From Candidatus Gygaella obscura (GTDB taxonomy: Bacteria > Omnitrophota > Gorgyraeia > Gygaellales > Gygaellaceae), in the NCBI GenBank assembly GCA_030765485.1, contig JAVCCR010000031.1, positions 17,359 to 81,358 on the forward strand: DNA of 64,000 nt. The letters run 5' to 3'. The position numbers and the translations under genes are program-made. Position 1 is the first letter of the stretch, and each line of letters begins with the position of its first letter. The notes below the pieces were generated by a model that was given only the letters and a program-made list of their open reading frames with translations, searched no databases and had not been told where the DNA came from. Shown piece by piece: positions 13,019 to 55,641 of this stretch.

Positions 13019-13579
13019 ATGAGCGTTAAAGAAGTTATTAAAAAAACCGAAGATAATATGAAGAAGGCTATTGTATCTTGTGCGAGAGAGTTTAATACGG
13101 TCCGCACCGGAAGAGCTTCGCCTTCTTTGGTGGAAGGTTTACATATTGATTATTATGGGACCCCGACTCTTTTAAAACAGCTGGCGAATATTTCTGTTCC
13201 TGATGCCCGTTTGATTGTTATCCAGCCATGGGATCTTTCGGCTATTGCTGAGATTGAAAAAGCAATTTTTTCATCCAATTTAGGGATTACTCCTTCTAAC
13301 GATGGTAAGGTTGTCAGGTTGGCAGTACCTCCTTTATCTGATGAAAGAAGAGAGGAGCTTGTAAAGGTTATAAAGCAGATGGTTGAAGAAACTCGAGTTT
13401 CAGTTCGTACCATAAGAAGAGATGCTAATGAGTCGGTAAAAAAACTTGAGTCTGAAAAGGTTATTTCTGAAGATGAAAAGTTTAAATCTCAGGATCAGAT
13501 TCAGAAGCTTACTAATAACTATATTGCGGAAGCAGATAAGCTTTTAGAAAATAAAGAAAAAGAGTTGAAGCAGTTTTAG
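13019..13579 (+). CDS. frr: Ribosome recycling factor
   Basis: Re-called start at ATG 13019 (M31 of the track ORF 12929..13579). This gives a 186 aa protein 'MSVKEVIKKTEDNMKKAI...' with RRF-typical 'RTGRASPSLVEGL' and 'LAVPPLSDERREELVKVIKQ'. The upstream extension overlaps the pyrH 3' end. Confidence 0.9.
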   Translation: MSVKEVIKKTEDNMKKAIVSCAREFNTVRTGRASPSLVEGLHIDYYGTPTLLKQLANISVPDARLIVIQPWDLSAIAEIEKAIFSSNLGITPSNDGKVVRLAVPPLSDERREELVKVIKQMVEETRVSVRTIRRDANESVKKLESEKVISEDEKFKSQDQIQKLTNNYIAEADKLLENKEKELKQF

Positions 13580-14375: not shown

Positions 14376-15600
14376 AATACTTTTTTTCTTTAGATGGCTT
14401 CAGCCTGGTCTAAGGATTAAACGCTGGGTTGCGCTTAGTCTTTGGGGAGTTTTTCTTATTTTGGTAGGCTCCAATAGATTGGGAATAGAGAAGCTGGTTT
14501 TTTTAAAAGCTTTGGAGTATTTTGTTATAGTTTTAGGCGTTGGTTTTTTATTCGTCGGTGTGATTGAACTTATATTATCAATTCTGTCATTATTTTTTCC
14601 GACAAAGAATAAGTCAGTTCGTAAAGTTGTAAAAATACGGCTTCTTGAGAAAGGACCCAAGATTGTTGCTATCGGGGGCGGAACAGGACTTGCTGTTCTT
14701 TTACAGGGAATAAAAGAGTATACTTCAAATATAAAAGCTGTAGTTACGGTTGCTGATGATGGTGGTTCTTCGGGTCGTTTAAGAGAGCAATTTGATATTT
14801 TGCCCCCGGGAGATATTAGGAACTGTCTTGTGGCTTTAGCTGATACAGAGCAGCTTATGCGTGACTTATTTCAGTTTAGGTTTAAAGGAGATTCAGAGCT
14901 TTCCGGCCATAGTTTCGGCAATTTGTTCATTACGGCTATGACACAGCTTACCGGTGATTTTGAAAAAGCGATAAAAGAATCTAGTAAGGTTTTAGCAATC
15001 AGGGGTCAGGTTGTTCCATCAACGCTTTATAAGGTAAATTTAGGGGCTGAGTATAATGATGGTTCTGTTGTTATCGGGGAAGCGGATATTCCTAAAAAGA
15101 AGCTTCCGATTAAAAGAGTATTTTTAAAATCTCAGCAGGATAGGCCTTTGGTTGCGACAGCTGAGGTTATTAAGTCGATCAATGAAGCAGATGCGATTAT
15201 TTTAGGTCCAGGCAGTTTATATACCAGTATTATTCCCAATCTTTTAATTACTGATATTGCTGATGCGATTGCTGCTTCAAATGCCAAAAAGTTTTATATC
15301 TGTAATGCCATGACTCAGGTTGGCGAGACAACGCAGTTTTCAGCATCAGACCATATCAGCACGCTTATCGCACACAGCAACAGACATATTTTAGATTACT
15401 GTGTTGTTAATAATAAAGTCATTCCTGAAGAGCTGTTGGATAGATATAAAAATGAAGGTTCTCAGCCGGTTGTTATCGATAGAGAAAAGGTTAGAACTAT
15501 GGGGTATAGGTTATTAGAGCAGGATCTGATTGCTGTTGATGGTTATGTAAGGCATGATTTTAGAAAATTAGCTAGGCTTTTGGTAAAATTAATAAAATAA
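14359..15600 (+). CDS. YvcK/CofD-family gluconeogenesis factor (UPF0052) with N-terminal membrane extension
   Basis: 413 aa. 'KIVAIGGGTGLAVLLQGIKEYT', 'VTVADDGGSSGRLRE', 'PPGDIRNCLVALAD' are YvcK/CofD signatures. The first ~85 aa are hydrophobic, so the true start may lie further in. 17-nt overlap with ptsN. Confidence 0.8.
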   Translation: MTRRLKILFFFRWLQPGLRIKRWVALSLWGVFLILVGSNRLGIEKLVFLKALEYFVIVLGVGFLFVGVIELILSILSLFFPTKNKSVRKVVKIRLLEKGPKIVAIGGGTGLAVLLQGIKEYTSNIKAVVTVADDGGSSGRLREQFDILPPGDIRNCLVALADTEQLMRDLFQFRFKGDSELSGHSFGNLFITAMTQLTGDFEKAIKESSKVLAIRGQVVPSTLYKVNLGAEYNDGSVVIGEADIPKKKLPIKRVFLKSQQDRPLVATAEVIKSINEADAIILGPGSLYTSIIPNLLITDIADAIAASNAKKFYICNAMTQVGETTQFSASDHISTLIAHSNRHILDYCVVNNKVIPEELLDRYKNEGSQPVVIDREKVRTMGYRLLEQDLIAVDGYVRHDFRKLARLLVKLIK

Positions 15601-15605
15601 ATTTA

Positions 15606-15869
15606 ATGTCAAAAATAAAAAAAGAGCTTATTGTAAAAAATAAACAAGGCCTACATGCAAGGCCAGCTGCACTATTCGTGCAGATTGCTAATAAGTATGA
15701 TGCGGAAATATCAGTAAAAAAAGAAGATGAAGAAGTTAATGGTAAATCGATCATGGGTATACTTTTATTGGGCGCGGAAAAAGATAGCAGAATAATGATT
15801 ATTGCTGATGGTGCCGATGCGAATGAGGCAATTGCAGAATTAGAAACCTTGATAAACAAAGAAGAATAA
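15606..15869 (+). CDS. ptsH: Phosphocarrier protein HPr (or NPr)
   Basis: 87 aa. 'NKQGLHARPAALFV' with the His15 phosphorylation site. 'GKSIMGILLLGA' Ser46 region. Confidence 0.85.
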   Translation: MSKIKKELIVKNKQGLHARPAALFVQIANKYDAEISVKKEDEEVNGKSIMGILLLGAEKDSRIMIIADGADANEAIAELETLINKEE

Positions 15870-46395: not shown

Positions 46396-47214
46396 ATGAA
46401 GATAAAGAAAATAAAGATACTTCTGGTTATTTTAGCTGTTTCTATTTTTGTATCGGTATTTTTTATTTTAAGGCGCGAATATGTTGTACCTATATTTATG
46501 TATCATTCTGTGAGAAAGGATAATCCGTCAAGCACTAAGTTGATTGTAAGCCCTAAGGCATTTGAGGAGCAAATGAGGTTTCTTGCTAAAAATTCTTATA
46601 ATGTAATAAGTCTTTCATGCCTTGCGCGCATCATACAGGAGAATAAAAAAATCCCTCCTAAGACCGTAGTTGTTACTTTTGATGACGGCTACAGGGATAA
46701 TTTTTTAAATGCTAAGCCGATTTTAGAAAAGTATCTTATTCCGGCAACCATATTTATTGCTGTAGATTTTATTGGGCAGCAAATTAAGCAAAGTAGTTAT
46801 TTTGTAGATAGTTCTGAATTTATGTCAATAGAGGAACTTAAAAGTTTAGTTGATTCTGAGTTTATCGATCTAGGCATTCATACGTTTAGCCATGTAGATC
46901 TGGTAAAGCTTGATGAACAAAACGATTTAATCCATGAGATAAAAGAGCCTAAGGAATTTCTTGAAGAACAGCTTGACTGTGAAATGGATTTATTCAGTTA
47001 TCCTTTCGGCTCCTTTGATAAAAGAAGCCGTAGTATTGTTTTGCAATCCGGTTATGTGGCAGCTGTGGCAACAAACCCCGGAAGAGATTACCCAAAAAAT
47101 GACGTATTTGTATTAAAAAGAATCCGCATCAGCGAAAAAGACAGTAATCCTTTTATCCTCTGGGTAAAGGCAAGCGGTTTTTACACATTATTAAAAGAAT
47201 TAAGAGATGACTAA
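46396..47214 (+). CDS. Polysaccharide deacetylase (NodB-homology, CE4) with N-terminal membrane anchor
   Basis: 272 aa. TM 'ILLVILAVSIFVSVFFIL'. 'VVVTFDDGYRDNF' Asp-Asp metal motif. 'HTFSHVDL' His motif. Confidence 0.8.
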   Translation: MKIKKIKILLVILAVSIFVSVFFILRREYVVPIFMYHSVRKDNPSSTKLIVSPKAFEEQMRFLAKNSYNVISLSCLARIIQENKKIPPKTVVVTFDDGYRDNFLNAKPILEKYLIPATIFIAVDFIGQQIKQSSYFVDSSEFMSIEELKSLVDSEFIDLGIHTFSHVDLVKLDEQNDLIHEIKEPKEFLEEQLDCEMDLFSYPFGSFDKRSRSIVLQSGYVAAVATNPGRDYPKNDVFVLKRIRISEKDSNPFILWVKASGFYTLLKELRDD

Positions 47215-48241
47215 AGTTTATAAAAGAATTCTGGTTTTTAACGTCAATTGGCTTGGGGATGTGCTTTTTACCACTCCGGCAATACGTGTTTTAAGAAAAA
47301 GTTTTCCTGATAGTTATATTGCCTGTGCTGCGCCTGCCAGGTGCGCGCAGCTTTTAAAGAATAACCCTAGTATAAATGAGTTTATTTCTTTTGATGAAAG
47401 AGGCAGTTTCAAGAGTGTGTTTTCAAAGATAGCGTTTATTTTTTCTTTGAGAAAGAAAAAATTTGATGCGGTATTTTTATTTCACCGTTCCTTTACAAGA
47501 CTTATGATTTGTTTTTTTGCTGGGATAAAAAATAGAATTGGATATAGCCGCAGGAAGAATAATCTGCTGTTGACCGGTAAGATCGATCCTATTGAGCGTG
47601 ATTCTGTTCATCGTATTGATTACTTTTTGAATATCGTCAGGCCTTATGTTGGTAAGATTGATGATAAATCTTATGAACTTAAGGTAAACAAAAGAGACAT
47701 CTTAGATGTAAGGAATATATTGGAAGAAAAAGGAGTGAAAAGTTCTGATCAATTGGTTGTGCTTAATCCTGGTGCAAATTGGCCTCTTAAGCGTTGGCCG
47801 GTTGATAATTTTGCAAAGCTTATTAATCTTTTGTCAAAAGAACCTGGTTTAAAAGTTATTGTTGTTGGGGCAAAAGAAGATCAAGGTTTGGTGGAGAAGA
47901 TCTTAAGTCTATCTAAATCTGAAGCGGTTGTATTAACAGGGCAGCTTAATCTTATTCAGCTTGCTGCATTGTTTAGTTTAAGCAGTATTGTCATAAGCGC
48001 TGATTCAGGGCCGATGCATATTGCCATTGCAGTTGAGGTCAGTGTTATTGCATTGTTTGGGCCCACTGATTATAGGATTACAGGACCTGTTGATGTTGAT
48101 AAAAACACTGTTTTGAAAAAAGATATAGATTGTGATATCCCGTGTTTTAAACTTGATTGCGCGGATAATATCTGTATGAGTCAGATAACTGCGGAAGAAG
48201 TACTTGAAGTCATAAAAACAAAACTATTAATGCGCCCATAG
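47207..48241 (+). CDS. ADP-heptose:LPS heptosyltransferase (GT9, WaaC/WaaF-like)
   Basis: 344 aa. 'ILVFNVNWLGDVLFTTPAIRVLRKSFPD', 'VLNPGANWPLKRWP', 'SADSGPMHIAIAV'. Confidence 0.8.
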   Translation: MTKVYKRILVFNVNWLGDVLFTTPAIRVLRKSFPDSYIACAAPARCAQLLKNNPSINEFISFDERGSFKSVFSKIAFIFSLRKKKFDAVFLFHRSFTRLMICFFAGIKNRIGYSRRKNNLLLTGKIDPIERDSVHRIDYFLNIVRPYVGKIDDKSYELKVNKRDILDVRNILEEKGVKSSDQLVVLNPGANWPLKRWPVDNFAKLINLLSKEPGLKVIVVGAKEDQGLVEKILSLSKSEAVVLTGQLNLIQLAALFSLSSIVISADSGPMHIAIAVEVSVIALFGPTDYRITGPVDVDKNTVLKKDIDCDIPCFKLDCADNICMSQITAEEVLEVIKTKLLMRP

Positions 48242-48305
48242 CTCAATTGGATAGAGCGCCAGTCTTCGGAACTGGATGTTGCAGGTTCGATTCCTGCTGG
48301 GCGCG
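48232..48305 (+). tRNA. tRNA-Arg (anticodon TCG)
   Basis: gcgccca acceptor, D-arm gctcaattggatagagc, anticodon stem ccagt/actgg with loop cTTCGga, T-arm gcaggttcgattcctgc. Overlaps the heptosyltransferase stop by ~10 nt. Confidence 0.85.
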
Positions 48306-48312
48306 AAAAAAA

Positions 48313-48909
48313 ATGAAAACATGCCCGTTTTGTACAAAAGAAATCGCTGAAGGGGATACAACCTGTAAGCACTGCAATAGGTCTCTAACTCAAGAGTTGG
48401 GGGAAAGGTTTTCTTATCAAAAAGAAGAGGTCTTTTCTAATATAGTACCGATTAAGAAATTTATTTTCTTAAGCGTAATCAGTTTAGGGTTGTATGAGAT
48501 TTACTGGATGTATAAGAATTGGCAGTTTATTAAAGAAAAAAGAAAACTAAAAATAATTCCTATGGCTAGAGCAATATTTTCTTTATTTTTTATATACAGT
48601 TTTTTTAAGAATATATTCCTTATTACAGCTGAAAAAGGTTATGAGGAAAAGTATTCCCCTATTTTACTAAGCGCTTGTTTTATAATGCTTAATCTTCTGG
48701 CCAATAAGGATAACCTTATGTGGTTTATGGCTATATTCTCGTTTGTTCCGCTTGTTGTTGCTTTAAATGCAGTTAATTTCTATTGGCAAAAAACCCAACC
48801 TAAAAAAAGGATAAGGACTAATTTTAGCAAGGAAGAGTTATTGATGTTATATTTTGGTTTATTATTAATACTTATGAGTGTTATTTCTATGTTTACTGTG
48901 GTTAAATAG
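48313..48909 (+). CDS. Zinc-ribbon-containing membrane protein (hypothetical)
   Basis: Re-called start at ATG 48313, because the track ORF start 48247 lies inside the tRNA. 198 aa. N-terminal CPFC...CKHC zinc ribbon followed by 4-5 TM helices. Confidence 0.5.
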   Translation: MKTCPFCTKEIAEGDTTCKHCNRSLTQELGERFSYQKEEVFSNIVPIKKFIFLSVISLGLYEIYWMYKNWQFIKEKRKLKIIPMARAIFSLFFIYSFFKNIFLITAEKGYEEKYSPILLSACFIMLNLLANKDNLMWFMAIFSFVPLVVALNAVNFYWQKTQPKKRIRTNFSKEELLMLYFGLLLILMSVISMFTVVK

Positions 48910-49137: not shown

Positions 49138-49818
49138 ATGCGCAAAAACAAAAGGCTTATCAGTATCGTTGTTTTGGTTTTTTTAGTTTTTGTAATTTTA
49201 TTTTCCAGTATCTATCTAGATATAGATAAGACAAAGATAGATAATTTCCTTTCTTCTTACCCCGGTTATCTTCAGTGGGTTTTATTTGTATTTTTGTATT
49301 CTGTGGTCGCTTATTTTATCTGGGTGATAAAAGATCCATTAAAAATCATCGCTGCTGTAATTTTTGGCGTATATATAAGTAGTTTACTTATATGGATAGC
49401 TGAGATAATCAATTGTTTTTTATTGTTTTTTACCTCCAGGATATTAATTCGAGGTTCTTTTTCACAGCGGTTTAAATCTAAATGGGTCAGTGTGCTAGAT
49501 AATAGGATTAAGAATTTAAGCCCGAGTTGGATTTTTCTTCTTAGGTTTGTTCCGTTAATTCCTTACAGGGTTTTAGATACGACGTTTGGTTTTACCAAGA
49601 TTAGTTTTAAAAAATACCTATTCATTATTATAATTGCTTCTCCGGTTAGGATATTCTGGGTTCAATATATAATCAGCGCAGTAGGTGCAAATATTTTGAA
49701 GAATCCCAAAGCTATAGCCAGGTATTTTAATACTGATCCGTTGTTGATGGTTTTAAGCTCTGTGTATTTTATTTTAATGTTGGTAGTTATTTTTAAGCTG
49801 AAGAGAAAAGCTAGATAG
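49138..49818 (+). CDS. TVP38/TMEM64 (DedA-superfamily, VTT domain) membrane protein
   Basis: 226 aa. 'LRFVPLIPYRVLDTTFGFTKISFKKYLFIIIIASPVRIFW' resembles the VTT-domain core. Confidence 0.55.
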   Translation: MRKNKRLISIVVLVFLVFVILFSSIYLDIDKTKIDNFLSSYPGYLQWVLFVFLYSVVAYFIWVIKDPLKIIAAVIFGVYISSLLIWIAEIINCFLLFFTSRILIRGSFSQRFKSKWVSVLDNRIKNLSPSWIFLLRFVPLIPYRVLDTTFGFTKISFKKYLFIIIIASPVRIFWVQYIISAVGANILKNPKAIARYFNTDPLLMVLSSVYFILMLVVIFKLKRKAR

Positions 49819-50833
49819 TTCTTTGCAGGGCAAGGTAGACGATTTTATTGATCAGCTGTTCGTAACTTACGCCGGTTTTTTCAGCAGCCTGGGCTACTTC
49901 ATCAATATAGGCAAGGCATGGGTTTGCATTAGGTTCTAGGATATAAATTATTCCTTTATCAGGTGTAATCCTTATATCAAATCTGGCATAACTTTGAAAT
50001 TCCAAAGCCCTGTACGCACGCTTACAGACTTCCTCGATTTTTTTAGCCATTCCATTGGGCAGTTTTCCAGCATAGACGCTTTTTATTCCCCATTTATCGC
50101 GGTATTTGTCATCCCATTTTGCTTTATATGTGGCGATTCTAGGTTCATCTTCGGGCAGCTCTCCGAATTTTAACTCTCGAGCAGGCAAGACTGTTAATCT
50201 TTTATTGCCGATGACAGTTACGTATAGTTCTCTGCCATCAACATATTCCTCGGCTATGGCATCCATGGACATGCTTTCATGGATAAATTTTATTCTTTCA
50301 ATCAAAGAGTCTTCATTATCCACTATGGAACTTTGTGCAATACCTCGGGAAGCTTCTTCGCACAGAGGTTTTATTACAAGAGGAAGCTTCAGGTATTTAG
50401 GGAGCCAAACCTTATGGTTTCTTTTAAAAGTATAGAATCTAGGTACACGCAAACGGTGGAACCTAAGAATTTTTTTACTTAGCGCTTTGTTGTTGCAGAT
50501 AAACAACACTCCTGAGGAAGCCCCAGTATAAGGGATTTCCAGTATTTCTAAAAGTGACGCAACATTTTTGTCCAGATAGGTCTTATTATTAAATACTTCA
50601 GTAAGGTTAAATACTAAATCTGGTTTGAAATCTTTGATTTCTTCTAAAAGTGCGTTTATGTCATTAAATAGACCCAGTAATCTTACTTCATGGCCGTTTT
50701 TAATCAGGGCCTGATATACGTCGCGTTCGGTATACCAGTTTTCTTCATCTTTAAATTCTTTGTCAAAGGAGTATTCTTTGGGTGTAAAGTATGGAGTATC
50801 GAAAAGTAAGATGATTTTTAGTTTCTTTTTCAT
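49811..50833 (-). CDS. ATP-grasp ligase, D-Ala-D-Ala-ligase-like family
   Basis: 340 aa. Ddl-like N-terminus 'KIILLFDTPYFTPKEYSF...HEVRLLGL...DLVFNLTE'. ATP-grasp core 'LPLVIKPLCEEASRGI', 'EEYVDGRELYVTVIG', 'ARFDIRITPDKGIIYILEPNANP'. Confidence 0.75.
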   Translation of the reverse strand: MKKKLKIILLFDTPYFTPKEYSFDKEFKDEENWYTERDVYQALIKNGHEVRLLGLFNDINALLEEIKDFKPDLVFNLTEVFNNKTYLDKNVASLLEILEIPYTGASSGVLFICNNKALSKKILRFHRLRVPRFYTFKRNHKVWLPKYLKLPLVIKPLCEEASRGIAQSSIVDNEDSLIERIKFIHESMSMDAIAEEYVDGRELYVTVIGNKRLTVLPARELKFGELPEDEPRIATYKAKWDDKYRDKWGIKSVYAGKLPNGMAKKIEEVCKRAYRALEFQSYARFDIRITPDKGIIYILEPNANPCLAYIDEVAQAAEKTGVSYEQLINKIVYLALQRTI

Positions 50834-51840
50834 TTTCTGGTTTTTAAACGCCCGGTATGTAGATAGTTCATTACTAAAGTTGTTATATAGGCGGTAATCT
50901 TTGAAATAATCGTGGTTTCGTCTTTACTGCTAACAAGTTTTAACTTCTTGCAGCGGGATTTTATATTTTTTAATACATCGTTTATGATATATTTTTTTTC
51001 ACCTGTCCAGGCAGAGACATTATTTAGGATTTCTTTTTTGTAGCGATTAATTATATCATATGCCTTGGGAAGTTTTTGGGTTTCTTCAGTATAGGCAGTA
51101 AATATCTTGGATAGATTTGTATCATGAAAGTCAGGGAAGTCCTCTAAACTGAAGTTTTTTCTTTTCTTGTAGTAATTTTTTAAGGTTGATTTTATTCTTG
51201 AAGCCTGCCAGTATTTTTTTCCCTTTTTAACCAATGCAGGATGTTTTTTTATTTTGTTCATCAGAGAATCCATATACTCAAGCTTTTTTAAGGCTTTCCA
51301 GTTTTTGTATCTATTTTGCCAATTCGAATCTGGAGTAAGCCATACGGCAAATGTTTCTGCAAAGTCTTCATCAGGGTGGTACTGTGCATAATAATCTTCC
51401 AAATGTCTTACGAATGCTTTACTGTAAGGTCTGAATCGGTATGTATCGGCGTAGGTTGCAGAAGGACTACCGAAAACTTTTTTCCATTTTGGCTTTTTGA
51501 AGAGCTGATAAGCATAATTTATGGCATGTCCTGTTTCATGGCGAAGTAGTTTCATACACCATTCTTTTGTGCCGCCTTCGACTTCTAGCATCATTTTTTT
51601 TTCTAGTCTCATAAGGGCTTCATCAGCCAGATAAAAGGGGATACCGATTATGGGTTCTCCTTCAGGGGTAAGCCATTCGTCTGCTAAGTAACAACTGGGA
51701 CGAAATAACAGGTTTTTTAGTTGAAGCTCTTCATAAAGCTTATTGATGCATTCAGACAGCCAGGTATTTTCAATTTTTACCGGTAGATCCCTAATTCTTA
51801 GATCCAGTATTTGTTCTTCGTTAAGATTTGATAGGTTCAT
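50830..51840 (-). CDS. Zincin-like putative metallopeptidase (HExxH), cytoplasmic
   Basis: 336 aa. 'LLRHETGHAINYAYQL' HExxH, with downstream 'HPDEDFAETFAVWLTPD' supplying a candidate third ligand/Glu. No signal peptide. Stop overlaps the ATP-grasp gene's start (ATGA). Confidence 0.6.
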   Translation of the reverse strand: MNLSNLNEEQILDLRIRDLPVKIENTWLSECINKLYEELQLKNLLFRPSCYLADEWLTPEGEPIIGIPFYLADEALMRLEKKMMLEVEGGTKEWCMKLLRHETGHAINYAYQLFKKPKWKKVFGSPSATYADTYRFRPYSKAFVRHLEDYYAQYHPDEDFAETFAVWLTPDSNWQNRYKNWKALKKLEYMDSLMNKIKKHPALVKKGKKYWQASRIKSTLKNYYKKRKNFSLEDFPDFHDTNLSKIFTAYTEETQKLPKAYDIINRYKKEILNNVSAWTGEKKYIINDVLKNIKSRCKKLKLVSSKDETTIISKITAYITTLVMNYLHTGRLKTRK

Positions 51841-51957
51841 AGTGTTTTAGTTATAAGTAGTTGCTTTAGGTTATATTCTAACAAATTCACTCAAAAATTC
51901 TATTAAAATTATAAAACAATAGTATAATAGTTTTAAGGTATAACAAAAGGAGGGGAT

Positions 51958-52320
51958 ATGTTTGCTAATATTATTGGATGGCTTTTAATCATATGGGGGA
52001 TACTTTTTATTATGAAGCCGGAATTTTTAAGAAAAAAGCTTCAGAAAAAAAGCCAGAAAACCATTAAAAAAATAATTCTGGGGATTACAGTTTCGTTTTC
52101 AGTGCTTATCATTATTGCCGCTTTTAAGACAGAAGGCATGGTTTCTAAGATTTTAGCTGTTTTGGCTATTATTGCCGTTATCAAGGCATTTTTGATGGTT
52201 AAATCAAAGGTTTCGGATAAACTTATCGAGTGGTATATGAAACTGTCGGTTAAGGTATTGGTTTTAGGCGGTGCAATGCAGGTTTTAATAGGCGTATCAA
52301 TTTTGGTAGTTAATAAATAA
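51958..52320 (+). CDS. Hypothetical small membrane protein
   Basis: 120 aa, three TM helices. A good SD 'aaaggagggg' upstream. Its last ~32 codons are duplicated at 53711-53807. Confidence 0.45.
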   Translation: MFANIIGWLLIIWGILFIMKPEFLRKKLQKKSQKTIKKIILGITVSFSVLIIIAAFKTEGMVSKILAVLAIIAVIKAFLMVKSKVSDKLIEWYMKLSVKVLVLGGAMQVLIGVSILVVNK

Positions 52321-52405: not shown

Positions 52406-53653
52406 GTGATGAAAAAAATTATTTTATTTATATTTTTTCATTTTTTATATTCTTTTTCTTTTGCCCAAGAGGTTGAGGAAATCCGCATTGTTACTTATTA
52501 TCCAGCCCCTTACGGAAGTTATACTGAGTTGACTACTGAGCGAATGAAGATCGGTCCGACTTTTTCTCAGAGTGGTACAACTGTTGGTGACGGTAATTTA
52601 ATTGTAGAAAATAATGTTGCAATAGGCACGGATACGCCAATTAGTGGAGTACCAGGATCAGATAAGATTTTGACGATTGGTGGCACAAACCCGACACTAA
52701 GGTTTGATGATTTAGATGTAGGTGATAATGATATGGAAATACACGTACAAAACGGAGAGATGGGTTTTTATGAGCTAAGTACTTTAAGAATGATGTTAAA
52801 AGGGGGCTATTTGGGAATTGGTACGGATTCTCCTTCTGACAAATTGACTGTAGAAGAAGGAGTTATTAATATAAGGTCAGCAGGTGGTGCTTTGAAATTT
52901 ACAGATACCAATGAAAATGATGCAGGGCAAATTAGGTTAGCTACGCTATCGGTAAAAGGGCTAGAATTTTTGGTTGATTCAAATGGTGATAAGATAGCAG
53001 AACTTATTGCGATGAATATAGATCCTGACGGTAATGTGGGTATTGGTACAACTAACCCGGAAGCAAAGTTACATATTTTAGACACTAGCGATGGTTCTTC
53101 CGGAGGTTCGGCGCCAGCTGGTTCGGATAGATTGGTTATAGAAGGAGGGTTTAACGCCTATATCAATGAGATTTCCCATCCCAATGCATGGGGAGGAATT
53201 CTCTTTTCCGATGATGTTAGGGGAAGAGGATCAATTAAATATGGACACTTTAACGATGTGCTTGAGATTAACGTTGCCGGTTCATCGGCGATGTCCATTG
53301 ATAAAAGCGGTAATATCACGGGAACTTATGGAAGTTATCATGTCGCTTCGGATGAGCGGTTAAAGAAAGATATTACTACGATTCAGGATGCATTGGATAA
53401 AGTTTTAAGTTTGAGGGGTGTGAATTTTCACTGGAAAGATTCTAATTTAAATCAAGGTAAATTGCGTATGGGGTTAGTTGCACAAGAGGTTGAAAAAGTT
53501 GTTCCCGAGGTTGTTCATACTGTAGATGATGAAATGCAGACAAAGGCAGTTGAATATCAATATTTGGTTGGTTTATTGATAGAAGCAATTAAAGATCAGC
53601 AGAAGCAGATAAATAATTTAAAAACAGAAGTTGAAATACTTAAGAATAATTAA
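52406..53653 (+). CDS. Secreted fibre-like protein with C-terminal peptidase S74 (intramolecular-chaperone, self-cleaving) domain
   Basis: 415 aa. Signal peptide 'MMKKIILFIFFHFLYSFSFAQE'. Repeated 'N-V-(A/G)-IGT-(D/T)-x-P' motifs at three positions, resembling tail-fibre/beta-helix repeats. C-terminus 'ASDERLKKDITTIQDALDKVLSLRGVNFHWKD...GLVAQEVEKVVPEVV' matches the endosialidase-type chaperone domain that autocleaves at Ser. Confidence 0.75.
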   Translation: MMKKIILFIFFHFLYSFSFAQEVEEIRIVTYYPAPYGSYTELTTERMKIGPTFSQSGTTVGDGNLIVENNVAIGTDTPISGVPGSDKILTIGGTNPTLRFDDLDVGDNDMEIHVQNGEMGFYELSTLRMMLKGGYLGIGTDSPSDKLTVEEGVINIRSAGGALKFTDTNENDAGQIRLATLSVKGLEFLVDSNGDKIAELIAMNIDPDGNVGIGTTNPEAKLHILDTSDGSSGGSAPAGSDRLVIEGGFNAYINEISHPNAWGGILFSDDVRGRGSIKYGHFNDVLEINVAGSSAMSIDKSGNITGTYGSYHVASDERLKKDITTIQDALDKVLSLRGVNFHWKDSNLNQGKLRMGLVAQEVEKVVPEVVHTVDDEMQTKAVEYQYLVGLLIEAIKDQQKQINNLKTEVEILKNN

Positions 53654-53710: not shown

Positions 53711-53840
53711 TTATCGAGTGGTATATGAAGTTACCGGTTAAGGTTTTGGTTTTAGGTGGTGCAATGCAGGTTTTAATAAGCGTATCAATTTTGGTAGTTA
53801 ATAAATAAAGTCTATGAGAAGATTTGTTATTGTTAGTTTA
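53711..53840. repeat. 130-bp direct repeat, copy B (orphan 3' fragment of the 120-aa gene + intact start of the DUF481 gene)
   Basis: Contains an out-of-context '...EWYMKLPVKVLVLGGAMQVLISVSILVVNK*' remnant with no start, and the intact ATG of the 53814 gene. Confidence 0.8.
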
Positions 53841-54719
53841 TTAGTTTTAGTTTTAGCAAGCATTTGTTTTGCTCAAGATATTTCAAAGGTCGTACTGGAT
53901 AATGGCGATATTATAAATGCAAAGATCGTTCAAGAGAATAAAGATAGCATAACTATAGAAAGCGATATCTTAGGCAGACTTTATATTGAGAAGAAACATG
54001 TTAAAGATATCGTTTTTTTAGGGCAAGATGGGGTCAAGGAAAAGCCTCAGAAATCAGCAAAAGACTCTTTGTGGAAGAAAGAAATTTCTTTGGGTTTAAA
54101 TAAAGTTAGTGGCAATACGAGAAGCTCTAAGACGAACAGTTCAATATTTTTAAACAGAAAAACTTCTACTGATGAGTTTACCATCAAAGCCAATACTCTT
54201 TACGGCTCATCCAGCAATAAGATGGATACGCAGAAATGGTATACGATGCTGCGTTATGCCTTTAGTTTCAAAGATAAAAGGTGGTACAACTTTTATAAGC
54301 TTGAAAGCGATCACGATAGGTTTACGAATATAGATTATAGAATTACTCCGACAACCGGATTAGGTTATTGGTTTAGTGATGCAGATAATTTTAAGGCAAT
54401 GGTAGAATTAGGTGTAGGTTGTGAACACACAAGCTTCAGGGATAATACAAAAAATAAGAATGAGGCGATTTTGATTCCCCGTGCATTTTTAGAAAAGCAG
54501 CTTTTTGATAAGTTAAGGTTTTCCCAGGAATTAGTATTATACCCAAAGCTTGAGAATGCCGGAGACTTCAGGCTGCATTCTGAGAGTGTAGTTAAAAATT
54601 ATATAGATGAGAATTCATTCATCGCCTTAAGTTTTATAGATGATTATAATTCAAAACCCGATAGCAATACAAAAAAGAACGATTCTCGGTTTATGACTAG
54701 TTTAAATTATGAGTTTTAG
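53814..54719 (+). CDS. DUF481-family putative outer-membrane beta-barrel protein
   Basis: 301 aa. Signal peptide 'MRRFVIVSLLVLVLASICFAQD'. N-terminal 'VVLDNGDIINAKIVQENKDSITIESDILGRLYIEKKHVKDIVF' beta-hairpin module typical of DUF481. Alternating-hydrophobic strands. C-terminal 'LNYEF' aromatic terminus. Confidence 0.6.
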   Translation: MRRFVIVSLLVLVLASICFAQDISKVVLDNGDIINAKIVQENKDSITIESDILGRLYIEKKHVKDIVFLGQDGVKEKPQKSAKDSLWKKEISLGLNKVSGNTRSSKTNSSIFLNRKTSTDEFTIKANTLYGSSSNKMDTQKWYTMLRYAFSFKDKRWYNFYKLESDHDRFTNIDYRITPTTGLGYWFSDADNFKAMVELGVGCEHTSFRDNTKNKNEAILIPRAFLEKQLFDKLRFSQELVLYPKLENAGDFRLHSESVVKNYIDENSFIALSFIDDYNSKPDSNTKKNDSRFMTSLNYEF

Positions 54720-54730
54720 GAGTCAAAATA

Positions 54731-55474
54731 ATGAAGAAAATTCTTAATTGGCAGCTTATTTTAGGATTATTATTGATTGCGCTTTCTGCAGGAGTTTATT
54801 ATCTTCATTTTTTGATCTTTAGAGACATTCACCATATATTTATATATCTTGTGGGAGATATTGCTTTTGTATTCTTTGAGGTTTTGCTGGTTACTTTAGT
54901 GTTACATAACCTGCTGCATTTTCGTGAAAAGAGGTCTCTTTTAAAAAAACTTAACATGGTAATAGGTTCTTTTTTCACTGAATTGGGCACCGATTTATTA
55001 AAGACTTTTTCCGAGTTTGATCATAATAGCAAGATATTAGCAAAGGCGTTGATTGTTTCTGATAAATGGCTTGAAAAAGATTTTATAAGAGTGTGCAGGT
55101 TGGTAAAAAGACATACAAGTGATTTAAATATAAACAAAGATAGCCTTAATTCATTAAAAGAGTTCTTGAATAGGAAAAGAGATTTTCTGTTAAGTTTATT
55201 AGGTAATTCTAATCTCCTAGAACATGAGTCTTTTACCGATTTATTATGGGCGGTTTTTCATCTTACAGAAGAACTTTCTTACCGGGTTGATTTTAAACAG
55301 TTGCCCCAGACAGATATAGAGCACTTAACTAATGATGTGAAGCGGGTCTACGCACAGCTTTTGTCCGAATGGATTATGTACATGGCTCATTTAAAGAATA
55401 ATTATCCATATTTATTTTCATTGGCTTTAAGGACTAATCCTTTTGATAAAGAAGTTTCTGTTGTTGTAGCATAG
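54731..55474 (+). CDS. Hypothetical membrane protein (N-terminal TM pair + cytoplasmic helical domain)
   Basis: 247 aa. No recognisable motif. Confidence 0.45.
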   Translation: MKKILNWQLILGLLLIALSAGVYYLHFLIFRDIHHIFIYLVGDIAFVFFEVLLVTLVLHNLLHFREKRSLLKKLNMVIGSFFTELGTDLLKTFSEFDHNSKILAKALIVSDKWLEKDFIRVCRLVKRHTSDLNINKDSLNSLKEFLNRKRDFLLSLLGNSNLLEHESFTDLLWAVFHLTEELSYRVDFKQLPQTDIEHLTNDVKRVYAQLLSEWIMYMAHLKNNYPYLFSLALRTNPFDKEVSVVVA

Positions 55475-55568: not shown

Positions 55569-55641
55569 GGGCCGTTAGCTCAATTGGTAGAGCGGCAGAC
55601 TCTTAATCTGTAGGTTGCAGGTTCGATTCCTGCACGGCTCA
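55569..55641 (+). tRNA. tRNA-Lys (anticodon CTT)
   Basis: gggccgt acceptor, D-arm gctcaattggtagagc, anticodon stem gcaga/tctgt with loop cTCTTaa, T-arm gcaggttcgattcctgc. Confidence 0.85.

Follow-up and report, generated by a model that had tools for sequence, protein, structure and literature searches.

A co-inherited Ddl-type ATP-grasp ligase and HExxH peptidase in Candidatus Gygaella obscura and several bacterial phyla: a candidate ligate-and-cleave module

The formation of an amide bond by an ATP-grasp enzyme is, in several known systems, accompanied by a dedicated activity that breaks it. In VanA/VanX and in glutathionylspermidine synthetase/amidase, an ATP-grasp amide ligase is paired or fused with a hydrolase for small amide products of the same class; this hydrolase is an M15-type D,D-dipeptidase in the case of VanX and a CHAP cysteine amidase in that of glutathionylspermidine amidase. 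The cycle of tubulin tyrosine ligase (TTL) and detyrosinase follows the same logic of addition and removal that we propose below. In the RimABK system of Pseudomonas, the ATP-grasp ligase RimK is co-transcribed with the protease RimB, and the two form an add/remove cycle in the glutamylation of RpsF (PMC7343187, PMC11957791). Here we analyse a pair made of a cytoplasmic-type HExxH peptidase and a D-Ala-D-Ala ligase (Ddl)-type ATP-grasp enzyme, found in a window of 64,000 nucleotides (nt), the whole stretch of DNA examined and the one to which all coordinates refer, on contig JAVCCR010000031.1 of Candidatus Gygaella obscura (Omnitrophota), a taxon named from an Antarctic lake study (PMC8542988) and the one whose genome supplies the database proteins identical to the pair at 100%. 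The two genes are inherited together, almost obligately, across phyla.

The peptidase gene (50830..51840, minus strand), an open reading frame (ORF) of 336 amino acids (aa) with an N-terminal catalytic domain and a C-terminal helical domain, lies upstream of the ligase gene (49811..50833, minus strand), an ORF of 340 aa encoding a predicted carboxylate-amine ligase of the Ddl-fold ATP-grasp type. The TGA of the first overlaps the ATG of the second by 4 nt in an ATGA stop/start element (50830..50833, minus strand), and the junction reads ...AGAAAATGAAAAAG..., in agreement with the two overlapping minus-strand ORFs described in the initial annotation. The layout is that of a translationally coupled two-gene operon. 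A greedy non-overlapping call of minus-strand ORFs of at least 80 aa beyond 8.9 kb yields just two more, 13153-13413 (86 aa) and 15572-15859 (95 aa), which are short and probably spurious. Neither protein displays a signal-peptide-like N-terminus or a hydrophobic segment of transmembrane grade (maximum Kyte-Doolittle 19-residue means of 1.01 and 1.29), and both are predicted to be cytoplasmic.

The association of the two genes is remarkably constant. We surveyed 80 genome loci with a relative of the peptidase, one genome per species, and found a ligase homologue directly downstream and on the same strand in 77 of them; two of the remaining three loci are cut by a contig end, and the third, L056, is a true exception. 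An independent scan of metagenomes, seeded from the most conserved motifs, gave an adjacent ligase in 72 of 75 loci with room downstream and three more with the ligase slightly further downstream. Locus L113 has less than 1 kb of downstream sequence, with no ligase in it. Both genes are thus present in ~150 of the ~155 loci with sufficient sequence, contrary to what the initial annotation had named as refuting a functional pair, a lack of co-occurrence elsewhere, and the pairing holds down to ~36-40% identity (lowest value for the ligase, 36%). The carriers are labelled Omnitrophota, Planctomycetota, Auribacterota, Acidobacteriota, Elusimicrobia and Pseudomonadota, the last being metagenome-assembled genomes (MAGs) bearing that label, and include the cultured Rhodopirellula baltica, Rubripirellula and Novipirellula. 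An NTGA overlap of 4 nt is found in 36 of 58 full-length homologous pairs, most of the others being separated by a few tens of nt at most. Because it recurs in ~150 independent loci, the adjacency is far beyond chance, and the inference of a functional pair is strongly supported.

When all ORFs of 40 aa or more in the surroundings of 107 pairs were clustered, no third conserved gene emerged: the commonest neighbour is present at 18 of the 107 loci, in keeping with the initial description of a self-contained two-gene unit. Those neighbours that do recur are NadA-, MnmA-, PfkB- and GreA-like housekeeping genes, whose presence is due to synteny within Omnitrophota, and mur, fts or van genes never neighbour the pair in the loci surveyed. 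ORFs located downstream of the ligase are lineage-specific and inconsistent, being DapA-like, unclassified, or a weakly EF-Tu-D2-like ORF of 84 aa. The latter is conserved on the same strand, directly downstream of the ligase, at 11 loci (L024:8053-8307 and ~10 from Omnitrophota), matches EF-Tu domain 2 weakly (PF03144, E = 0.009) and is absent from the window; it may be an accessory partner particular to this lineage, or owe its place to synteny alone. No alternative partner gene was seen in the ligase-less loci L056 and L113. The L056 ligase may have been relocated or lost, which would make this locus a natural test of whether the peptidase can work alone.

The window ligase is recognized by the Pfam model Dala_Dala_lig_C with 81.9 bits, and the Ddl N-terminal domain (PF01820) is not among its Pfam matches. 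It scores below the cutoff of every NCBIfam Ddl/Van model, with 125.8 bits against a cutoff of 243 for the best one (PRK01372), 102.3 against 245.65 for TIGR01205 and 45.8 against 775 for the VanA model. Its relatives in the PDB, whether sought by sequence or by structure, are all Ddl/VanA enzymes, and its AlphaFold 2 (AF2) model, with a predicted local distance difference test score (pLDDT) of 88.2, aligns with Ddl structures in Foldseek at a template modelling (TM) score of ~0.75 and E ~1e-23, for 20-23% identity. We mapped its residues on Escherichia coli DdlB, whose reference sequence is identical to PDB 1IOV/2DLN, and counted each column over 68 family sequences using two independent alignments, one from MAFFT and one from a hidden Markov model (HMM). 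The ATP, Mg and transition-state set formed by K116, K155, E195, E202, K239, R284, D286, E300 and N302, equivalent to DdlB K97, K144, E180, E187, K215, R255, D257, E270 and N272 respectively, is invariant in the 68 ligases. Since these residues and the fold are the same as in Ddl, the enzyme almost certainly forms an acyl-phosphate and then an amide bond.

The residues that make DdlB specific for D-Ala are replaced throughout the family. DdlB S150, a D-Ala-binding residue, becomes A161 and Y216 becomes W240, each in 66 of 68 ligases, while G276 is substituted by C, S or N at position 306. In place of DdlB S281-L282, which binds the carboxylate of the second D-Ala, stands an acidic pair, D311-E312 (49898..49903, minus strand), with 63 D and 5 E at the first column and 63 E and 4 D at the second; both alignments place D or E there in 67-68 of 68 sequences. 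The omega-loop lid (residues 228-258; 50060..50152, minus strand) is enlarged by insertions of 6 and 5 aa relative to DdlB in the HMM alignment and carries a conserved A234-T-Y-K-A-K239-W240-D-x-x-Y244-R-x-K-W248-G-I-K block; its pLDDT is low in the AF2 model, as expected for a mobile lid. Ahead of helix α1, the short Gly-rich loop has given way to a conserved one of ~25 residues. T35-E36-R-D-V, where helix 34-45 begins, resembles DdlB A-E15-R-E-V, and E36 is found in 66 of 68 ligases, a correspondence with which the MAFFT placement disagrees. As the D-Ala-specific residues are replaced family-wide, the ligase is, judged from its residues, not a Ddl sensu stricto and its predicted product is not D-Ala-D-Ala. 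A canonical Ddl is ruled out by the sub-cutoff scores, the replaced D-Ala residues, the missing PF01820 and the lack of mur/fts neighbours. What the initial annotation called D-Ala-D-Ala-ligase-like therefore applies to the fold and does not extend to the specificity. The D311-E312 pair suggests that the second substrate is probably cationic or devoid of an α-carboxylate.

The peptidase carries the two motifs first noticed in the 336-aa protein, HETGHAINY at residues 101-109 and EDFAETFA at residues 158-165, and its low hydropathy maximum agrees with the reported absence of a signal peptide. The zinc-binding and catalytic helix is encoded by the codons of H101-E102-T103-G104-H105 (51526..51540, minus strand), with H101, E102, G104 and H105 invariant in 85 sequences; the downstream block, Y151-A-Q-Y-H155-P-D-E158-D-F-A-E162-T-F164 (51349..51390, minus strand), would contribute the third zinc ligand, a Glu, and a transition-state Tyr. 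HExxH and the downstream acidic block are retained in at least 98% of 66 genome-derived members, and the 66- and 85-sequence sets both show full or almost full conservation of H101, E102, G104, H105, Y151, H155, P156, D159, F160, E162 and F164. Conservation of HExxH had been set beforehand, in the initial annotation, as one of two observations on which a functional pair would hinge: the motif is kept by 148 of 150 family representatives at 50% identity, and in these 148 a near-invariant YAQxHPxED[F/W]AE[T/S]FAVWL block follows 57-58 residues later, giving the near-invariant family signature RHExGH…YAQxHPxED[F/W]AETFAVWL. E158 and E162, both near-invariant within ED[F/W]AE[T/S]F, sit on a predicted helix (156-168). 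By analogy with anthrax lethal factor (LF), where we take Y728 and E735 to belong to a Y-x6-E-x-F-x-E pattern following HExxH, we propose E158 or E162 as putative third zinc ligand and Y151 as putative transition-state Tyr.

The profile match to a 'putative zinc-binding metallo-peptidase' family anticipated in the initial annotation is provided by Pfam Peptidase_Mx (PF15887), which recognizes 85 of 85 family members at E ≤ 1 (best, 1e-09). For the window protein, the score is 30.7 bits against a gathering threshold of 27, and the match is limited to residues 99-168, or model positions 90-164 of 236; membership is marginal because this match is partial. Peptidase_Mx1 (PF15890) matches 40 of the 85 members and Pfam ATLF matches 11, weakly, and the lipoprotein model TIGR04549 gives the window protein 21.9 against a cutoff of 75. 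The AF2 model (mean pLDDT 87.9) combines a zincin-like α/β N-terminal half (~residues 1-180) and an all-helical C-terminal domain (~183-330). Sequence and profile searches of the PDB with the peptidase returned spurious matches only. Foldseek gave no significant match in the PDB; its top-ranking ones are almost all LF catalytic domains, with a local probability of up to 0.99. We conclude that the protein is in all likelihood a catalytically competent gluzincin of the LF/Peptidase_Mx type, belonging to a distinct family without a characterised structure. Its isoelectric point (pI) ranges from 8.4 to 10.2, with a median of 9.2, whatever the phylum or GC content (66 sequences, loci L001-L080), and the ligase is mostly basic as well (median pI of 8.7 in 68 sequences from the same loci); this basic character suggests an acidic substrate or partner.

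An exhaustive HMM search against 1.84 billion representatives retrieved 966 peptidase clusters at E ≤ 1e-30 and 2,968 at E ≤ 1e-3, family size being counted in clusters at 50% identity. Nearly all are ~340 aa long, with no fusions among the top 150, and no natural fusion of peptidase and ligase appears among the top database matches. The 2.9 million viral contigs of IMG/VR contain only four peptidase relatives, one of them with the pair. The other three are distant, lie on high-GC contigs and align to the N-terminal catalytic part only, and none adjoins a ligase. Two of the viral-contig proteins (L162:4560-6236 and L164:4569-6164, both plus strand; 531-558 aa) join the gluzincin module (RHExGH…YAQKHPDEDWAETFAVWL) to the C-terminal domain of an Fe/Mn superoxide dismutase (SOD; Sod_Fe_C, PF02777, E = 3e-13 and 4e-10), an architecture that looks unreported. 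They have this SOD domain instead of the helical C-terminal domain and no adjacent ATP-grasp gene, which hints, on a small sample, at an association between the helical domain and the partnership with a ligase.

As the best-supported model we tentatively propose, with a probability of about 0.45, that the two enzymes form a ligate-and-cleave module in which the ligase builds, and the peptidase hydrolyses or trims, the same linkage, thereby controlling a small peptide or peptide-type tail. Using ATP, the ligase would activate an amino-acid-type carboxylate as an acyl phosphate and join it to an amine, probably cationic or without an alpha-carboxylate; the gluzincin would hydrolyse or trim the resulting amide linkage; and the two enzymes together would set the steady-state level of the small peptide or tail. 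This scheme, in which we infer a shared substrate or product, the in-vivo direction of each reaction and the nature of the substrate, is plausible given the conserved coupling and the analogy with known systems. There is a roughly even chance that the substrate is a small metabolite resembling a di- or oligopeptide; the chance of a protein or peptide tail appears distinctly lower, and that of something else lower again. Small substrates are favoured by the closed, lid-covered Ddl-type pocket predicted for the ligase and by the possibly retained E36. Features that may also fit a protein target are the LF-like type of the peptidase and the basic pI of its family, the additional conserved loops and the helical domain of ~150 residues. 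In a more specific and rather unlikely version, the pair would be a widespread system of reversible post-translational tailing, the prokaryotic counterpart, built from wholly different families, of tubulin tyrosination/detyrosination or RimK/RimB. The Ddl-derived ligase would then attach one amino acid or a few in a row to a conserved cellular protein, and the LF-like gluzincin, using its C-terminal helical domain for docking, would take them off again. The target of such tailing could be acidic or ribosome-associated, considering the basic pI of both enzymes.

Several observations weigh against the ligate-and-cleave scheme or the evidence on which it draws. Adjacency demonstrates functional linkage, not cleavage of the ligase product by the peptidase. 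The divergence of the two proteins is correlated by Pearson's coefficient (r = 0.72), a value driven by clade structure, the Spearman coefficient being 0.20 (p = 0.13). In Omnitrophota locus L056, an intact peptidase gene (L056:1044-2060) is followed by unrelated secretion-type genes, with no adjacent ligase. The fold likeness between peptidase and LF is weak globally, with a best E of 0.034 and a TM-score of ~0.27 in Foldseek. Substrate inference from D311-E312 and W240 rests on the alignment with DdlB, not on the structure of a complex. MAFFT assigns DdlB E15, which binds the α-amino group of the first D-Ala, to a non-conserved ligase column; the HMM local alignment with DdlB starts at residue 87, past this region, and we judge the MAFFT placement of E15 unreliable. 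We found no characterised family member and no literature on this pair, although an earlier prediction is possible in Iyer et al. 2009 (Mol Biosyst 5:1636, PMC3268129), reportedly the key comparative-genomics paper on ATP-grasp neighbourhoods.

Other arrangements of the same two activities can be envisaged. Instead of acting on one linkage, the enzymes could catalyse consecutive steps of a salvage route, the peptidase freeing an amino acid or amine from a peptide, for instance a cell-wall or storage fragment, and the ligase attaching it to a different acceptor. The coupling of an upstream peptidase gene to the ligase fits equimolar consecutive enzymes, tight co-inheritance is explained equally well, and a plausibly kept E36 at the Ddl alpha-amino site, seen in all but two ligases, would suggest a free amino acid as substrate. 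However, the pair has no conserved neighbour related to an acceptor, to transport or to cell-wall recycling, nothing points to a source of peptides, and gene order alone does not amount to pathway order; we regard salvage as unlikely. A link with the cell wall could also take the form of VanA/VanX-like editing, where the ligase would produce an alternative D-Ala-D-X (or X-D-Ala) dipeptide or depsipeptide for peptidoglycan and the peptidase would break down the normal dipeptide that competes with it. As in VanA/VanX, a ligase is paired with a Zn hydrolase; the Ddl/VanA type accounts for every PDB relative of the ligase, and the position of Y216, which governs Ddl versus Van-type specificity, is now W. 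Against these points, none of S150, S281, L282 and G276 is kept, NCBIfam Ddl/Van scores are far below cutoff with PF01820 undetected, and the peptidase is an HExxH gluzincin rather than a VanX/M15-type enzyme, with no mur, fts or van gene linked to it. Such editing is improbable.

We give just as little credence to the idea that the ligase polymerises, and the peptidase depolymerises, a poly-amino-acid or storage polymer of the cytoplasm (cyanophycin-like or poly-acidic). ATP-grasp polymerases do exist, as illustrated by RimK and the G domain of cyanophycin synthetase, and basic proteins, the peptidase especially, would suit an acidic polymer. Yet the alignment and the model indicate a Ddl-type pocket under a conserved lid and not the open groove of polymerising ATP-grasp enzymes, and the ligase shows no likeness to RimK or CphA above its Ddl matches and no Mur-ligase-like second domain of the CphA kind. 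The last alternative, a fortuitous or merely syntenic adjacency of enzymes engaged in unrelated processes, could draw on the ligase-less locus L056 and on the synteny of some flanking housekeeping genes within Omnitrophota, where lineage synteny could explain part of the pattern. It is effectively refuted by the persistence of the pair amid otherwise changing neighbours in Omnitrophota, Planctomycetota, Acidobacteriota, Elusimicrobia and Pseudomonadota-labelled MAGs, by the frequency of the 4-nt overlap and by the presence of both genes at nearly every locus.

The immediate surroundings of the pair are occupied by envelope proteins unrelated to it, as first described: a VTT/DedA-type membrane protein (49138-49818) on one side and, on the other, a small membrane ORF (51958-52320), a secreted-looking protein with a Peptidase_S74 tail (52406-53653, plus strand) and a DUF481 protein (53814-54719). 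The S74-tailed protein has 415 aa and ends with a domain of the 'chaperone of endosialidase' type (E = 8e-18), which is characteristic of auto-processing proteins resembling phage tail fibres or tailspikes. Both this gene and the one at 54731-55474 are missing from L001, the closest relative and otherwise syntenic, and look like local insertions beside the pair. A sigma-70-like promoter match (TTAAAA-17-TATAAT, 10/12; 51908..51936, minus strand) lies ~68 nt upstream of the peptidase start; promoter-like matches in the region are not above shuffled expectation, so that this one has positional plausibility only. Promoter and terminator scans of the pair region stay at chance level, and the peptidase leader contains no RNA element or riboswitch detectable by Rfam and no significant RNA fold (z = -0.78).

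The region is bracketed by tRNA-Arg (48231-48306) and tRNA-Lys (55569-55641), and the 'tRNA-bounded accessory stretch' of the initial annotation is correct as to the tRNAs and not as to the accessory character. Apart from the two inserted genes, gene order around the pair is shared with a different species (66-89% aa identity), the GC content of the pair is 0.367 versus 0.357 for the window, PADLOC gave no match to the pair and PHROG no meaningful one. An accessory island is rejected on account of these syntenic flanks, typical GC and negative scans, together with the lineage-wide rather than sporadic occurrence of the pair; a defence or phage module is rejected on the same two scans and on the finding of a single pair in all of IMG/VR. 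Further observations concern the tRNA genes of the window. The tRNA-Arg, of anticodon TCG, is overlapped by a called ORF of 220 aa (48247-48909, plus strand), which probably starts at an internal Met ('MKTCPFC…') and would encode a zinc-ribbon and DUF4234-like membrane protein, and a gene of the heptosyltransferase family (47207-48241) ends just inside the same tRNA. Between 60845 and 63033, four tRNA-Ser genes (TGA, CGA, GGA and GCT) and a tRNA-Arg (ACG) are grouped within ~2.2 kb, with small ORFs between them.

The module is neither rare nor lineage-bound, being present in several phyla that include cultured and genetically approachable Planctomycetes, and the chemistry of both enzyme types is well understood, so that its function should be directly testable. 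The names given to the family in databases are all generic: a solved function would annotate thousands of entries called 'ATP-grasp domain-containing protein' or 'putative zinc-binding metallopeptidase', and would show how the Ddl scaffold was retargeted. In bacteria of the Planctomycetes-Verrucomicrobia-Chlamydiae (PVC) group, it could bring to light either a peptide metabolite of the cytoplasm or a reversible modification of proteins that is new. The Joint Genome Institute (JGI) labels such ligase genes 'D-alanine-D-alanine ligase'; labels of this kind from MAG pipelines are unreliable, which matters when peptidoglycan is inferred in candidate phyla.

Compared with Ddl/VanA enzymes, the window ligase has the same three-domain fold and the full set of ATP, Mg and transition-state residues. 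It differs from them by its low identity (20-23%), its replaced D-Ala residues, its longer omega loop (6 + 5) and the ~25-residue loop before α1, as well as by its location outside cell-wall gene clusters and its pairing with a peptidase. The peptidase shares with Peptidase_Mx/Mx1 and the LF-type gluzincins (MEROPS M34) the HExxH helix, a Glu on a downstream E-x-F-x-E helix and a Tyr seven residues upstream, MtfA/M90 being further gluzincin relatives for comparison. Its family is set apart from Peptidase_Mx and LF by its own N-terminal region and its ~150-residue C-terminal helical domain, and this predicted cytoplasmic protein is neither toxin nor lipoprotein. VanX and the glutathionylspermidine amidase also stand apart, neither being an HExxH gluzincin. 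The closest characterised functional analogue of the pair is RimK/RimB, with a likeness in logic only and no homology beyond the ATP-grasp superfamily. RimK is an ATP-grasp enzyme of the RimK/GshB type, whereas the window ligase is of the Ddl type, its nearest families being all Ddl with no RimK-type model among its top Pfam or NCBIfam matches; RimB is a retropepsin-like aspartic protease, whereas the window peptidase is a predicted zinc enzyme; and RimA, the c-di-GMP phosphodiesterase of RimABK, has no counterpart beside the window pair. The logic of an ATP-grasp ligase with a dedicated peptidase is thus already known; what sets the window pair apart is the combination of a Ddl-type ligase with a gluzincin.

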